Notes: generated by a model not told the origin, from the letters alone. DNA of 64,000 bases from an uncultured Gammaproteobacteria bacterium (GCA_964367355.1 CAYIWY010000002.1:7296-71295); one strand, 5' to 3'; positions 9,669-20,066 are shown, counted from the stretch's first letter. A program made the numbers and translations.

Positions 9669-9689
9669 AGTCGTATTTTTTCAAGTTTC

Positions 9690-9718
9690 TTGCAGTACCA
9701 AAGTAAATTTGCTACAAT
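9690..9718 (+). promoter_or_regulatory. Sigma-70 promoter TTGCAG-17-TACAAT
   Basis: Near-consensus hexamers with 17-nt spacing. An AAGGAG SD lies at 9731-9736 and the ATG at 9745. Confidence 0.6.
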
Positions 9719-9744
9719 CCCAGACAAAGAAAGGAGTAGTCGAA

Positions 9745-11117: not shown

Positions 11118-12389
11118 ATGACTTCACAACCACTTGCTGATCAAATGCGGCCCACAAATCTAGAAGGTTTTGTTGGTCAAAGTCATATCGTCGGCAAAGG
11201 TAAAATTATTTCCACGCTCTTGAAACAAGATAAGATCCCATCTCTAATATTCTGGGGGCCACCGGGATCGGGGAAAACTACTTTAGCAAAAATAATTGCC
11301 AATAAAACCAAAAGTTTTTTTGAATTCCACTCTGCTGTTGAGGTTGGGGTTAATGATATTAAAAAAGTAATTTATGAATCCAAAAATAGATTGGAAAAAG
11401 GGGAACCTACTATTCTCTGCATCGATGAAATTCACCGCTAGAACAAATCTCAACAAGCCTACCTACTGCCGTTTGTTGAAGATGGAACAATCATTTTGAT
11501 TGGTGCTACTACCGAAAATCCCTCTTTTGAGGTTATTGGCCCATTACTTTCAAGATCAAGAGTTATAATTCTCGAGCGCCTGGACCAAGAAAACATTAAA
11601 CAACTTGTTGAAAGCGCTTTGAAAGATAAAGAAAAAGGTCTGGGAAATGCCCGGATAAAACTCGAACCAGAAGCACTAAAATTACTTTTGGAAAACTCAA
11701 ACGGCGACGCTCGTACAACTCTCAACGCACTGGAAATTGCTGCCAATCTGACACAACTGCGGCTCGGCGAAAGAAAAGTAACTGTCAAAAAAATTGAACA
11801 AGCCTTAGGCAGCAAAAAACTGCTTTATGATAAAACCGGTGAGGAACACTACAATGTTATCTCTGCATTTATCAAAAGTTTGCGCGGGAGCGACCCTAAT
11901 GCCGCAGTTTACTATTTAGCAAGAATGCTCGAAGCAGGGGAGGATCCAGAATTCATCGCTCGCCGAATGATAATTTTAGCCAGCGAAGATGTTGGCAATG
12001 CCGACCCAAAAGCACTGCAGATTGCCGTTGCGGCAGCACACGCTTTACAATACGTCGGCCTACCCGAAGCTTCTCTAAATTTAGCACAAGCGGCAACTTA
12101 TCTAGCTACTACACCAAAATCCAATGCTAGTTATATGGCTCTGAAAAAAGCCCAAGCAGATGTCAAATATACTCTCAACGAACCTGTACCTCTGCATCTT
12201 CGTAATGCAGTAACCGATCTTATGGGAGATATCGGTTATGGTCAGGGCTACAAATACGCCCACGATTTTGACGGTGGAGTAGTTAAGCAACAGTTTCTTC
12301 CGGATAAATTAAAAGATAAACATTATTACGAACCCAAAGAAATTGGTTACGAAAAATACATTAAAGAACATCTGGAAAAACTCAAATAA
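11118..12389 (+). pseudogene. rarA: Replication-associated recombination protein A (RarA/MgsA) interrupted by an in-frame TAG at 11442-11444
   Basis: Walker A GPPGSGKTTLAK and …CIDEIHR-[TAG]-NKSQQAYLLPFVEDGTIILIGATTENPSFE. The stop replaces the conserved Phe of the HRFNKSQQ motif. Both halves (11118..11441 and 11445/11496..12389) are in the same frame. Confidence 0.85.
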
Positions 12390-13713: not shown

Positions 13714-13829
13714 GAAGTATTATTCCCAAGATTTGTTTTTTCAAATTTATTTTGCTAGAATCCTTCTGTTCGGAAGAGATAGTCGAATCCGAGCTAGTTT
13801 TGAGGATATTCCTCAGAAGGAGAACAGGA

Positions 13830-16175: not shown

Positions 16176-16268
16176 TGTTATATTCTAATCCTTTTGACAA
16201 ATCCTTGATCTAGCATTAAAATTCCCACAAACGTAGGGAAACCAAATTAAACGAGAAGGAGATTGGTC

Positions 16269-16757
16269 ATGAGCAAGGTTTCGATTGAAGGAGTAGATCA
16301 CCCGACTTTCTCCACAAGAGACAAACGGGAGATCAGTCGCCTGGCCACAAGGTTGGTCAGATATTGTCCAGGCGTGGTGTCGGTTGAAGTTACCACATCT
16401 CAAACAAGTGGAACCAGGAACTCTGTCTGCCTCGATTACAAAGTCATTTTCGATCTGGGTAAGGTTTTTGCACTGCCGGACAATTTGCCATTTTCTCGCA
16501 CAATCCGTTTCAGCAGTTCCGGGGAGTGGTCGATTATTCCGGACCGGTTCAGAGGCAAGAAAATGCCTAGTGTTCGACCGGATCAAGTGAAAGAAATCGA
16601 CCGTGTGAAAGGTTTGCTCAAAAGCTGGAAAGTTCAACGCGAATTACTCAGTTGGTACTTCGCCGACATCGGCTACTACTGTTTCAGTAGCGGGGGCATA
16701 AGTCTCTGCGGTTGGGAGAGACAACTAGAGCAACGCAAGAAAATAAAGGCTGCATAG
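16269..16757 (+). CDS. Hypothetical 162-aa protein
   Basis: AAGGAG at 16256-16261, then the ATG at 16269. GC about 50%. No motifs. The antisense ORF 16185..16637 was rejected. Confidence 0.45.
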   Translation: MSKVSIEGVDHPTFSTRDKREISRLATRLVRYCPGVVSVEVTTSQTSGTRNSVCLDYKVIFDLGKVFALPDNLPFSRTIRFSSSGEWSIIPDRFRGKKMPSVRPDQVKEIDRVKGLLKSWKVQRELLSWYFADIGYYCFSSGGISLCGWERQLEQRKKIKAA

Positions 16758-16829
16758 CAAACTAAAGTAAGGGGTGGGGCAGTGTTCTACTGGATCGACT
16801 ACTAAAGTAGAAACACTGGACCAAAAGCG

Positions 16830-17033
16830 GTGACAAACCGCCTTCTTGACAAATACGGACTCAGAGTTCTCAAGATCGTTCCCGCCTATTTCGACGAAAG
16901 TAGCGAACTGGTTGAAATTGACGGGGATCTTACAACCTACAAGTTCCCTGCCAATTGTGTTGTGGAAGTTTTTCTTGGAACAGCCGAACCAGAACCATTT
17001 GCTACCTACGTTGCCCAAGTAATAAAGGCCTGA
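16830..17033 (+). CDS. Small hypothetical protein (67 aa)
   Basis: GTG start. Followed by the terminator at 17040-17085. Weak. Confidence 0.3.
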   Translation: MTNRLLDKYGLRVLKIVPAYFDESSELVEIDGDLTTYKFPANCVVEVFLGTAEPEPFATYVAQVIKA

Positions 17034-17039
17034 CCCACA

Positions 17040-17086
17040 CGGCGAGGAAGTTTCGATAAAATCGAATCCTCGCCGCTTCTTTTTAC
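17040..17086 (+). terminator. Rho-independent terminator
   Basis: GGCGAGGA…TCCTCGCC, then GCTTCTTTTT. Followed by CATAGTGTATAAT (-10). Confidence 0.6.
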
Positions 17087-17137
17087 CACAAATTTCATCT
17101 CATAGTGTATAATATATTCCAGGAAAAGGAGTGACTA

Positions 17138-17626
17138 ATGTTAAGTCAGGGGCAGATTTTTCAGCTAGTGGTAAGTGGAAGAATGTTTTGTTGGGCTGGT
17201 CAAGGTGATCGCCACAGCATTGAACCAACGATTCCCGGAGCAAAGCGTTTTAGACTTGAAACAAACTACAACGGAATTCCAGCAAGTTACGAAGACCAGT
17301 ACCTGGGAGAAAACGCTTTTTTTGGATCCGAACTAGTTCGGGTTGGGGATGAAAACGAAGCCGTCTGGGGAATGAATTACAACGGCTACTTGATGGATGA
17401 AGTCGAGAAAGTTGAACAATTCCTCAAGTCCATCCTTCGTACCGAAGCAAACCGTATCCGGTTTGGCGAAGACGTCCATATAACCCAAAAAGACTTGACT
17501 TATTCAAGTCGCACTGTCCGTCGGGTAAATAATCTGCATTTTACCCAAATTGAAACCATAAAGAGGGCTGGGGTAGAGTTTTACTCTGCAACACTCTCAG
17601 CCGGATCGATCATGACTCTTCCATGA
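17138..17626 (+). CDS. Hypothetical 162-aa protein
   Basis: AAAGGAG SD plus ATG. GC elevated. Confidence 0.5.
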   Translation: MLSQGQIFQLVVSGRMFCWAGQGDRHSIEPTIPGAKRFRLETNYNGIPASYEDQYLGENAFFGSELVRVGDENEAVWGMNYNGYLMDEVEKVEQFLKSILRTEANRIRFGEDVHITQKDLTYSSRTVRRVNNLHFTQIETIKRAGVEFYSATLSAGSIMTLP

Positions 17627-17646
17627 TAGATTTAGTCCGAATTTTC

Positions 17647-17687
17647 GGCGGGATCTGTGAAACTTCACACTCCCGCCGTTTCTTTTT
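17647..17687 (+). terminator. Terminator element GGCGGGATCTGTGAAACTTCACACTCCCGCC-GTTTCTTTTT (copy 1)
   Basis: Long hairpin with an internal TGTGAA-N2-TTCACA palindrome, then a T-run. Near-identical to 18258-18301. Confidence 0.65.
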
Positions 17688-17763
17688 GATAACTATCCCA
17701 TAGTGACAATTTGTGCTATAATACATGCAATTAACTTGTTCAATCCTGAAAAGGAGAAGAAAC

Positions 17764-18246
17764 GTGAGAGCGATACGAACCCTTCGAGATATGTTCGAAG
17801 ACCAATCGGAAATTTTCGAAAAGGTAAAGAAACTTTTCCCAATGGTCGATTGGAAAACAGTCGAACTAAATGGGGATGACATTCAGGATCTGTTGGCTAA
17901 ACTTCGCTGCGGTGCTTACGGAGATGAGGATCTTCTGAACGCATCAATCGAAGATTATGGTGGCATAGATCAAATAGTCGATGAGTTGTTTGAGATTCAT
18001 AAGCGCGATGGTCTTGGAACCGATAATCCTTTGCTCGCATTGAGTCGAGCTGTTGATTTCACGAAAGCAGTGATCCTTGCTGTGGCGGATATAACTCTCG
18101 AAATTGCAGAAAGCGAACCACCAGAAGAAGTAAAACTTCTGCTTGACCAGATTAGGGCTAAAGCCGCCGGTCAGCCAGTAACCCGCCCAACAATTGACCG
18201 TTTTCGTGGTGTCCCAAGGACACAAGATGGCCAGATAATCAACTAG
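17764..18246 (+). CDS. Hypothetical 160-aa acidic protein
   Basis: Extended -10 TGCTATAAT (17724-17732). AAGGAG SD, then a GTG start at 17764. Confidence 0.5.
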   Translation: MRAIRTLRDMFEDQSEIFEKVKKLFPMVDWKTVELNGDDIQDLLAKLRCGAYGDEDLLNASIEDYGGIDQIVDELFEIHKRDGLGTDNPLLALSRAVDFTKAVILAVADITLEIAESEPPEEVKLLLDQIRAKAAGQPVTRPTIDRFRGVPRTQDGQIIN

Positions 18247-18257
18247 AGTGGCACAAA

Positions 18258-18301
18258 CGCGGTGGGATTTGTGAAATTTCACACTCCCGCCGTTTCTTTT
18301 T
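18258..18301 (+). terminator. Terminator element GCGGTGGGATTTGTGAAATTTCACACTCCCGCCG-TTTCTTTTT (copy 2)
   Basis: Same architecture and almost the same sequence as 17647-17687. Confidence 0.65.
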
Positions 18302-18390
18302 GACAACTCCTCAAACCAATCTAAATCTCCTATATCTTATAGTCTCTGTGGTATAATATTTTCCAACAAACGAGCTACTTTAGCCAACTG

Positions 18391-18428
18391 GGAGTTGTTC
18401 CATCTCGATGGCAACTCCCGATTTTTTT
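18391..18428 (+). promoter_or_regulatory. Intrinsic-terminator-like hairpin inside a 5' leader (candidate attenuator)
   Basis: GGGAGTTG…CAACTCCC plus GATTTTTTT. It lies between the TGGTATAAT -10 (about 18347) and the SD/start at 18468/18481. Confidence 0.4.
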
Positions 18429-18480
18429 GGTCATAAAACTTGTTTTGTGTGGTAAAATCATTTCTAAAAGGAGGGGACCA

Positions 18481-18900
18481 GTGACCCATGCAGTGAACCA
18501 CCTGCAGGATCAGGAAAGAGTCGAGTTCGACGACCAAACCGTTCGGCGTGTCTTTGACTGTTTCCGGGATTATTCACTTTCCAGTTTGCTACTGTTGCTT
18601 CAAAAACGCCGTGGGGGACTGGGAATAGTAAGCCTTCAAGAAAAGATCAACCCGATTTATCAAAAGAGAGGCCTGTGGCCAGTTGATGAGAAATTCCTAA
18701 CCGATAAGCTTAGGGTTCTTGTCGAACTTGGATTGGTTGGCGTAAATCCAGCCCAAAACACCTATCGACTCAGTCCGATTGGAAAGCTGTTAGTCGAGCA
18801 CTTACTAATAACCGGTCGGAAAATGGAGCAGAAGCGCCGAGAGTTTGACGAGATATGTAATGCACATGGACAAATTCAGCTAGGGTCGTACGGGGACTGA
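18481..18900 (+). CDS. Hypothetical protein, possible winged-helix DNA-binding fold
   Basis: AAGGAGG SD, then GTG at 18481 (or ATG at 18487). …KLRVLVELGLVGVNPAQNTYRLSPIGKLLVEHL resembles a wHTH recognition helix and wing. Tentative. Confidence 0.4.
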   Translation: MTHAVNHLQDQERVEFDDQTVRRVFDCFRDYSLSSLLLLLQKRRGGLGIVSLQEKINPIYQKRGLWPVDEKFLTDKLRVLVELGLVGVNPAQNTYRLSPIGKLLVEHLLITGRKMEQKRREFDEICNAHGQIQLGSYGD

Positions 18901-19069
18901 TCACACCTAATACCGCTTCAACGAAGTTTACTGCAAAGATCTTCCACTAACCTGGAAGGTCTTTCTTTTTGACAAACAAGCCCTATAACAAGTAATGTAG
19001 CAACTAAACCAAACTTGTTGTATAATCACGAATAACTAAAAGTGGATAGATCTAGGTAAGGAGATTGAA

Positions 19070-19546
19070 ATGACCGACAAAACCCTCGATGTCCAGCTGG
19101 AGGATGCCACTCAGAAAATTCTATATTCGGAAATTAAAGAGTTGGCCGCCAACTCAACCATCGACCCGCTGCGTAAGTACCAATTCGCCCAAACGTACTC
19201 AAGGAGTGAGAATCAGGAGAATTGGTTACTAATGGGCATTGTTGCCGCTTTTGTTTTCCTAGTAATAGCGCTTGGTATCGGAATTACCTGGGCCGGATTC
19301 AATGACCTGCACAACCAATTTGGAGTTACCCCTGGCAACTCCCGAGCCGGCACTGAACTATTAGTTGGCATGCTCTTTATCTTTTTCGGTTCAGGGGTTT
19401 GTTGGTGGTTTCTGGCTTTTGCTGCAAACGCGTCGGCTCGAAAAATGGTTATCAGGGCACGTTTTGAGGAAACTCAAAAACCCAAAAGCTCTGAACAAAC
19501 CGAGATGCCAAACCAGACACCTGCAGCAGAACCCGGTAAGGAGTGA
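19070..19546 (+). CDS. Membrane protein (2 TM)
   Basis: AAGGAG SD plus ATG. TM helices LLMGIVAAFVFLVIALGIGI and LLVGMLFIFFGSGVCWWFLAF. Confidence 0.5.
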   Translation: MTDKTLDVQLEDATQKILYSEIKELAANSTIDPLRKYQFAQTYSRSENQENWLLMGIVAAFVFLVIALGIGITWAGFNDLHNQFGVTPGNSRAGTELLVGMLFIFFGSGVCWWFLAFAANASARKMVIRARFEETQKPKSSEQTEMPNQTPAAEPGKE

Positions 19547-19547
19547 G

Positions 19548-19887
19548 CATGGAAGATCTGGACCAGGAAAAGGGAACCCTGGATTACATGTGGGAACTGC
19601 TCGCCATGCCACTAGAAGGAATGCATGATTTAGTCGGCAAAGCTTGGGCAATATTTTACCTAATGGTTGCCTTTGTTTTGATTGGCGGATTGGTAAACAA
19701 AATACCGAGTGTCGAAATAAGCCGAGTGATCAATTTCGTTGCTCTTGTCGTCCTGGTTGGTTGTTTGGGAGTGGCAATCAAGACAAGCCCCAACCTAAGT
19801 AAGTGGTGGACATTTCCGGGACGAGCAGAATTGCTTGGAATTATGTCTGGTATTGGTCTGTCTGGATTCCTTTTGACCACAATCTAA
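19548..19887 (+). CDS. Membrane protein (3 TM)
   Basis: The ATG at 19548 overlaps the preceding TGA. An AAGGAG SD lies in the upstream gene. Confidence 0.5.
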
Positions 19888-19949
19888 GGCCACTGGAACA
19901 AACTGTGCGATCTTTCTTATCTAAAGAATGGGAGTTGGACAAAAATAAA

Positions 19950-19986
19950 AGAGCAAATCATCAGATTTGCTCTTTCATCTTTTTTC
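19950..19986. terminator. Bidirectional terminator
   Basis: AGAGCAAATC…GATTTGCTCT with an A-run 5' and a T-run 3'. Lies between convergent genes. Confidence 0.6.
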
Positions 19987-20066
19987 AGTTCCCATTTTTT
20001 TTAGTCTTCCTAGACGCAGAGCGCGAAGCGATCTTAGATTTCCTAATCGCAGGACGCTTTAGGGGA

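Follow-up and report, generated by a model that had tools for sequence, protein, structure and literature searches.

A 49-nucleotide (nt) direct repeat stands at two gene junctions in the 64,000-nt stretch of DNA analysed here (GCA_964367355.1, CAYIWY010000002.1:7296-71295; hereafter the window), at positions 17646-17694 (copy A1) and 18260-18308 (copy A2). By type, this element is an ordinary predicted Rho-independent (intrinsic) terminator, and we consider it likely that it closes single-gene units in a variable block of small genes, at ~16.2-19.9 kb, in which gene cassettes are shuffled. The hairpin alone is unremarkable, and the interest lies in the surrounding pattern of self-contained orphan-gene cassettes in a small-genome bacterium, whose junction modules stay conserved yet change partners from strain to strain, with divergence or replacement of the genes that lie between them.

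The repeated module, a predicted terminator

A repeat search of the window placed the two copies 614 nt apart (start to start) and alike at 45 of their 49 positions (92%), confirming the element of roughly 45 nt that a preliminary description of this DNA had reported at both junctions. Each copy lies on the + strand and consists of a hairpin (17646-17678 in A1, 18260-18292 in A2), a T-tract (17679-17687 in A1), the hexamer TTGATA (A1, 17686-17691) or TTGACA (A2, 18300-18305), and a final AACT. A1 begins 20 nt past the stop codon of a DUF5680 gene (17138-17626) and A2 14 nt past that of a gene for a 160-amino acid (aa) protein (17764-18246), both on the same strand as these genes. Within the window, a 34-nt core pattern, searched with at most three mismatches, matched only A1 and A2, and it had no match in 100 shuffles. 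The region is also matched by nine independent contigs, drawn from several samples, of which eight are 100% identical to it and the ninth has one mismatch; thus, the arrangement is not an assembly artefact.

Both copies are predicted to fold alike, with a lower stem of 8-9 GC-rich pairs, a 2x1 internal loop, five further pairs (TGTGA/TCACA), and a tetraloop, at -22.4 kcal/mol for A1 (z = -5.0) and -21.2 kcal/mol for A2 (z = -3.8). Directly 3' of both hairpins comes UUUCUUUUU, and the T-tract TTTCTTTTT begins at the first base past the stem in A1 and A2 alike. The GC-clamped hairpin with a U-tract of the preliminary description is thereby borne out. Its consensus overlooked one mismatch, GGCGGG in A1 versus GGTGGG in A2, which turns a G-C pair into G-U. 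A stable GC-rich stem-loop, an adjoining U-rich tract, and a position downstream of a co-oriented gene are all present at A1 and A2, and this hairpin, referred to as hairpin A, is predicted to terminate transcription. No meaningful Rfam match was obtained for 15-21 kb of the window.

The preliminary description also let the hairpin run straight into a promoter composed of TTGATA/TTGACA and a downstream TGnTATAAT. Both motifs do occur, yet together they make no canonical sigma-70 promoter. In A1, 25 nt separate TTGATA from the downstream TATAAT (17717-17722), and in A2, 46 nt separate TTGACA from the downstream TATAAT (18352-18357); TTGAYA as the -35 element of the downstream promoter was rejected on this spacing. 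The -10 box lies outside the repeated unit, which comprises the hairpin, the T-tract, and TTGAYA, and the promoter cores are separate conserved modules. The TGnTATAAT boxes themselves are putative promoters, judged by their sequence.

A third junction, at 17040-17120, has like logic with a different hairpin, as had been described. Hairpin B with its T-tract (17040-17084, + strand; CGGCGAGGA..TCCTCGCCG CTTCTTTTT) is a predicted intrinsic terminator, whose stem-loop (17040-17075) has a folding energy of -21.9 kcal/mol; CUUCUUUUU comes next, and then TATAAT at 17108-17113. The lower stem is near-identical in A and B (CGGCG(A)GGA on the 5' side, TCC(T)CGCCG on the 3' side), and the two modules have 14 nt, CGCCGTTTCTTTTT, in common. 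Further downstream are hairpin C with its T-tract (18389-18428, + strand), a two-tier structure (GGGAGTTG..CAACTCCC) with CCATC/GATGG on top, and hairpin D with its tail (18935-18975, + strand), the tail TTTCTTTTTGACAA being the same 14 nt as that of A2. Terminator-like hairpins are about five times denser in the block than in the rest of the window, occurring approximately every 0.7 kb versus every 3 kb.

The upper stem of hairpin A consists of the palindrome TGTGAA..TTCACA (a 14-mer, TGTGAAACTTCACA). This palindrome had been noted as TGTGAA-N2-TTCACA in the hairpin loop; it is present, as an upper stem with a tetraloop and not just as the loop. Its additional interpretation as a CRP/FNR-like site placed within a terminator fared less well. 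An operator bound by a CRP/FNR-like protein or by the winged-helix protein encoded at 18481, controlling either read-through or the downstream promoter, appears very unlikely to us, although TGTGA/TCACA is identical to the CRP half-sites, is kept in all complete hairpin-A copies, and lies near the gene of a probable winged-helix regulator, encoded 170 nt downstream of A2. CRP sites have the form TGTGA-N6-TCACA, and FNR sites (TTGAT-N4-ATCAA) have different half-sites, whereas the half-sites in hairpin A are spaced by N4, or by N3 in the copy of a related genome (L010), and so lack the fixed spacing of a CRP/FNR operator. Moreover, the central bases of the palindrome differ in every copy, its distance to the next -10 box differs by ~21 nt between A1 and A2, and no other TGTGA/TCACA-type site occurs within the window. 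No CRP-family or cyclic nucleotide monophosphate-binding protein was seen among the open reading frames (ORFs) scanned, which were those of the window and the called genes of ~14 kb of flanks. Since hairpins B and C are two-tier like A with unrelated upper stems, hairpin function alone accounts for the palindrome. TGTGAA..TTCACA is therefore not supported as a protein-binding site and, on its predicted fold, is best read as the upper stem of the hairpin.

The 139-aa gene starting at 18481 (18481-18900, + strand) has a palindrome of its own, CATAAAAC-TT-GTTTTGTG, at 18432-18449, just 5' of its -10 box TGGTAAAAT. This palindrome is a candidate operator for autoregulation by the 139-aa protein and would be a more natural operator for it than the hairpin. 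The protein probably belongs to the winged-helix regulators of the ArsR/PadR/MarR type: in a single-sequence model its core reaches a predicted local distance difference test (pLDDT) score of ~80, and ArsR, PadR, and MarR proteins came out as the best structural matches, with weak E-values.

Re-paired junctions in related genomes

The window was compared with four related groundwater genomes (L010, L011, L012, and L014), mostly available as short contigs. Protein-guided locus searches with the 160-aa family gave no relatives in metagenome and genome contig collections, and all comparative loci therefore come from exact-protein look-ups of homologues of the 160-aa, DUF5680, and 158-aa proteins.

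Gene order is not alike among the window, L010, L011, and L012. In the window, an S51 peptidase gene (- strand) is followed by a 164-aa gene, a 67-aa ORF, hairpin B, the DUF5680 gene, A1, the 160-aa gene, A2, an orphan promoter, hairpin C, the 139-aa gene, hairpin D, and the 158-aa and 112-aa genes. The L014 locus contains the 164-aa gene, an 83-aa gene, hairpin B, the DUF5680 gene, and hairpin A. L010 and L012 have the 83-aa gene, hairpin B, and the 160-aa gene, followed directly by the 112-aa gene in L010, where a 168-aa gene further on is succeeded by a variant of hairpin A. The order in L011 is HNH, a homologue of the 158-aa gene, hairpin A, the 160-aa gene with a 135-aa gene, hairpin E, which differs in sequence, and the DUF5680 gene.

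Across these loci, hairpin A with the CCGCCGTTTCTTTTTGAYAA tail is found at five junctions in four genomes and behind four different genes, namely the DUF5680 gene (window and L014), the 160-aa gene (window), the 158-aa homologue (L011), and the unrelated 168-aa gene (L010). Hairpin B lies behind the 67/83-aa gene in four genomes and is followed by a promoter of the DUF5680 type in the window and L014 and by one of the 160-aa-gene type in L010 and L012. The same re-pairing is seen from the side of the promoters. The 160-aa-gene promoter core (17692-17722, + strand; ACTATCCCATAGTGACAATTTGTGCTATAAT), with the extended -10 TGCTATAAT at 17714-17722, has 90-100% identity across four genomes and stands behind hairpin A or B. 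The DUF5680-gene promoter core (17091-17113, + strand; AATTTCATCTCATAGTG TATAAT) is kept in L011 and L014, with two different hairpins preceding it depending on the genome. One junction is chimeric: at 9881-9931 of L010, hairpin B is followed by the exact A2 tail CGCCGTTTCTTTTTGACAACT and then by the 160-aa-gene promoter, and the matches to B and A2 overlap in the 14 nt common to both modules. Where the DUF5680 cassette is present or missing, the limits of the difference are B at one end and A1 at the other. The duplicated cassette boundary proposed in the preliminary description is thus supported, and extended by the four genes ahead of hairpin A, the re-paired hairpins and promoters, and the chimera in L010.

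After A2, the window contains a promoter-like segment (18309-18357, + strand) that ends in the extended -10 TGGTATAAT (18349-18357) and shares homology with the promoter ahead of the L011 homologue of the 158-aa gene; no ORF lies downstream of it in the window. The strong hairpin C comes ~30 nt past TGGTATAAT, with neither an ORF nor a ribosome-binding site in between (18349-18428). This interval may be a cassette that has lost its gene, or it may encode a small RNA of ~65 nt.

A1 and A2 are unlikely to stem from just a local tandem-type duplication, or from the convergence of strong terminators, without any part in the exchange of cassettes. The two copies are adjacent, and intrinsic-terminator candidates in this genome often end with TTTCTTTTT, as would fit such an origin. 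Convergence is nevertheless excluded by the 45 shared positions, which include the unpaired tail TTGAYAACT, together with the lack of a shuffle match, and tandem gene duplication by the unrelated flanking genes. A purely local event also leaves unexplained the module at other junctions in other genomes, one of them chimeric, and the single order and pairing that it would predict for all relatives is contradicted by L010, L011, and L012. We regard it as decidedly improbable that the 49-nt unit is a dispersed mobile repeat, similar to repetitive extragenic palindromic (REP) sequences or miniature inverted-repeat transposable elements, that spreads by itself and acts as a terminator incidentally. 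Such an element could account for the finding, in related genomes, of a hairpin-and-tail unit of ~47-49 nt with sharp ends behind four genes that are unrelated to one another, but a blastn-short search of ~78 kb of the genome (the window plus ~14 kb of flanks) found no copy of hairpin A outside the block, and the only copy in the 12.9-kb L010 contig lies in that variable region too. The copies show no visible target-site duplication, and no transposase, REP-associated tyrosine transposase (RAYT), or integrase was seen among the ORFs scanned. Exact scans of genome, metagenome, and viral contig collections with the 20-base hairpin core gave no match, as did the core of hairpin B in the viral contig collection, and the reassortment of the promoters, which resembles that of the hairpins, is not explained by a hairpin-only element. 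Likewise, a generic terminator family with dozens of copies, considered in the preliminary description, is not apparent outside the block within the ~78 kb that the search reached.

Conservation differs between the segments of the cassettes. In comparisons of the window with its relatives, hairpins with their tails have identities of 87-96% and promoter cores mostly of 90-100% (83% in one comparison), versus 64-69% for the 5' untranslated regions (UTRs) and 68-78% for the cassette coding sequences. As controls, window and L010 are 87-90% identical in core genes and 92.6% identical in an unrelated terminator region at 8.7 kb. The junction modules are at, or slightly above, the genome background, and, given the core-gene control, what stands out is how little the cassette coding sequences have in common, not the high identity of the junctions. 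Differences between the hairpin-A copies fall mostly in the internal and apical loops, in addition to the one change from G-C to G-U. The L010 copy is more divergent, with changes in the upper stem and 3' arm, and is still predicted to form a hairpin. A consensus structure was obtained from four copies of hairpin A. Compensatory double changes were not found among these copies, and covariation is therefore neutral regarding the structure.

We propose that each cassette of the block, composed of an extended -10 promoter, one small gene, and a strong intrinsic terminator, would form an insulated transcription unit, and that A1 and A2 may be old paralogues of one terminator module. The two copies would have arisen through insertion, deletion, and re-ordering of cassettes within the block, by recombination or slippage in short junction sequences such as the stem base CGGCG/CGCCG, the T-tract TTTCTTTTT, and TTGAYAA. 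In such events, a whole cassette would be deleted, inserted, or replaced with genes left intact, carrying its own signals along. If cassettes do recombine at shared junction sequence, the same terminator would come to stand behind different genes and the same promoter behind different terminators. We infer from the sequence comparisons that the shared junction sequence may be the actual recombination substrate.

Several points weigh against this mechanism. A1 and A2 are identical without interruption over at most 26 nt, a length at the lower limit for homologous recombination, and terminator and promoter activity at the junctions is a prediction only. The duplication is old rather than recent, judging from the equal mutual identities of ~92% among A1, A2, and the L011 copy. 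At 87-100%, junction conservation exceeds the background of 87-90% only little, so that the striking part is the coding divergence. A lone chimeric junction lends little support to a general mechanism, the four related genomes are a small sample, and the search for further copies had the limited reach of ~78 kb. Finally, no variant without the 160-aa cassette was present among 17 contigs of the window population.

Other sequence changes were observed in and around the block. Two of them are variants within the population. In L013 (281-289, corresponding to 17886-17990 of the window), a 105-nt in-frame deletion lies within the 160-aa gene, and in L015 (1-40, window ~18968-19016), a 49-nt deletion between CTT repeats removes the TTGACA segment that lies between hairpin D and the -10 of the 158-aa gene. 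The 164-aa gene (window 16263-16757) is nearly gone at 9583-9625 of L010, where all that is left of it, the promoter and the first codons, leads straight into the beginning of the 83-aa gene. L016 was rejected as a rearranged variant; its first 460 nt are unrelated sequence of higher G+C joined to the middle of the 158-aa gene on a contig of 3x coverage, which probably results from chimeric assembly. Several junctions also reuse another promoter family (TTTTTTCAAnTTTCTTGCAGTAyCAAAnTAAATTTGyTAnAATCC), which occurs at 9676-9722 of the window, in a shortened form at ~13735-13765 (within 13735-13824), and twice in L010 (4487-4596 and 5172-5218). Because this family also recurs in the window and L010, module reuse reaches beyond hairpin A. 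In addition, 85 nt of promoter and 5'UTR are 89% identical before two proteins of only 27% identity at different positions in two genomes.

The gene block and its chromosomal setting

The block comprises seven small ORFs, all on the + strand, with a G+C content of ~45% versus ~39% in the immediate flanks. It begins with the 164-aa gene (16263-16757) and the 67-aa ORF (16830-17033), a shortened form of the 83-aa gene of the relatives. Traced from 16783 to 17033, this ORF has TAA at codon 8, where L010, L012, and L014 have CAA, and the sequence suggests either a disrupted gene or a restart at GTG 16830. The DUF5680 gene (162 aa, cassette 1) follows, then the near-orphan 160-aa gene in the cassette flanked by A1 and A2, the 139-aa gene, and finally the 158-aa and 112-aa membrane-protein genes (19070-19887), whose homologues adjoin the 160-aa gene in L011 and L010. 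DUF5680 is the sole Pfam family match among the ORFs of the block, and none of the seven has a match in PHROGs or PADLOC. These cassette genes are near-orphans, with 5 and 2 matches among 5.8 billion proteins and 9 among 1.84 billion representatives. Between the 112-aa gene and a convergent CopC-like gene, an inverted repeat with 37-nt arms (19923-20000) probably forms a bidirectional terminator, as far as its sequence indicates.

The window also encodes ClpB, MgsA, RuvC, YebC, DnaB, EF-P, HisRS, a release factor of the RF-1 type, Lgt, a VirD4-like ATPase, and a LexA-like S24 peptidase, a gene content that identifies it as part of a bacterial chromosome. The MgsA/RarA-type ATPase gene (11118-12389) is split into ORFs of 107 and 297 aa and is a single 423-aa gene in L010. 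Since the contigs matching the region derive from 0.1-µm-filtered Hainich groundwater, the host is most likely an ultra-small groundwater bacterium of the Candidate Phyla Radiation (CPR)/Patescibacteria type. One source database labels proteins of this metagenome-assembled genome 'Nanoarchaeota archaeon', but the gene content is bacterial and the label is probably a taxonomic mis-assignment.

Comparison with known terminator and cassette systems

Hairpin A resembles ordinary intrinsic terminators in its GC-rich stem-loop, its adjoining U-tract, and its position 14-20 nt past a stop codon on the strand of the gene. In contrast to the module, terminators of the ordinary kind that serve different genes do not normally share 92% identity across 49 nt with an unpaired tail included. 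Phage 'morons', reportedly described in 2000 by Hendrix, Juhala, and colleagues, are said to be autonomous promoter-gene-terminator units between phage genes. The cassettes of the window are similar in that one small gene carries a promoter and a terminator of its own, and in the higher G+C content of the block than of its flanks (~45% vs. ~39%), but no prophage setting was apparent for them, their genes lack PHROG matches, and the block occupies the same chromosomal place in L010.

REP sequences, bacterial interspersed mosaic elements (BIMEs), and the attC sites of integrons resemble hairpin A in being palindromic and in their location at gene or cassette 3' ends. Compared with REP/BIME elements, hairpin A has a low copy number in the ~78 kb searched (two copies, both in the block), where neither a RAYT nor a Y1 transposase was seen. 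Integron attC sites measure 57-141 nt, have the core sites GTTRRRY/RYYYAAC, and belong to promoterless cassettes with intI nearby. The boundaries in the window have no GTTRRRY, their hairpin is 33 nt long, each cassette has its own -10 box, and no integrase was found in the window, which distinguishes them from attC sites.

The closest known parallel is offered by the promoter-early stem-loops (PeSLs) of T4-type phages, motifs that each unite a stem-loop terminator with an early promoter and border the orphan genes of hyperplastic regions (Arbiol et al. 2010, PMC2839356; Comeau et al. 2014, PMC4122927). Recombination between PeSLs explains insertions and deletions among sister phages and yields mini-circles (PMC2839356; PMC4122927), providing a precedent for the proposed shuffling of cassettes. 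The differences are considerable. The window locus lies on a bacterial chromosome, with ClpB, MgsA, RuvC, DnaB, and EF-P nearby and no T4-like phage, and its modules have no sequence similarity to PeSLs. There are ~50 PeSL copies per phage genome versus two of one family in 64 kb, and TTGAYA is at a non-canonical distance from a -10 box that lies outside the repeated unit. Mini-circles and reporter activity belong to PeSLs, whereas the window modules are known as sequences, and phage recombination is far more active than expected for a small-genome bacterium. No description of PeSL-type plasticity on bacterial chromosomes was found in a limited literature search.

It is conceivable, although we hold it to be doubtful, that the block is a PeSL-like chromosomal system, in which the junction modules act as portable recombination anchors and orphan-gene cassettes are excised (e.g. 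the 614-bp A1-A2 unit as a mini-circle), inserted, or swapped for very divergent alleles between co-occurring strains. Such a system would be a dedicated 'gene nursery' for a streamlined genome. It would offer a concrete and testable route for the trial and exchange of new small genes in CPR-type bacteria, as well as compact, insulated natural expression parts for organisms without genetic tools. Like PeSL regions, the window has short repeated intergenic motifs with a predicted terminator stem-loop, concentrated in a hyperplastic region beside small orphan genes; of the sigma-70-type promoter elements that PeSLs include, the repeated unit of the window holds TTGAYA and not the -10 box. Also shared, in the small sample compared, are the insertion, deletion, or replacement of single-gene cassettes with their own promoter and terminator and with breakpoints in the motifs. 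By analogy, the pattern of the window block may thus be viewed as a chromosomal counterpart of phage PeSL shuffling.

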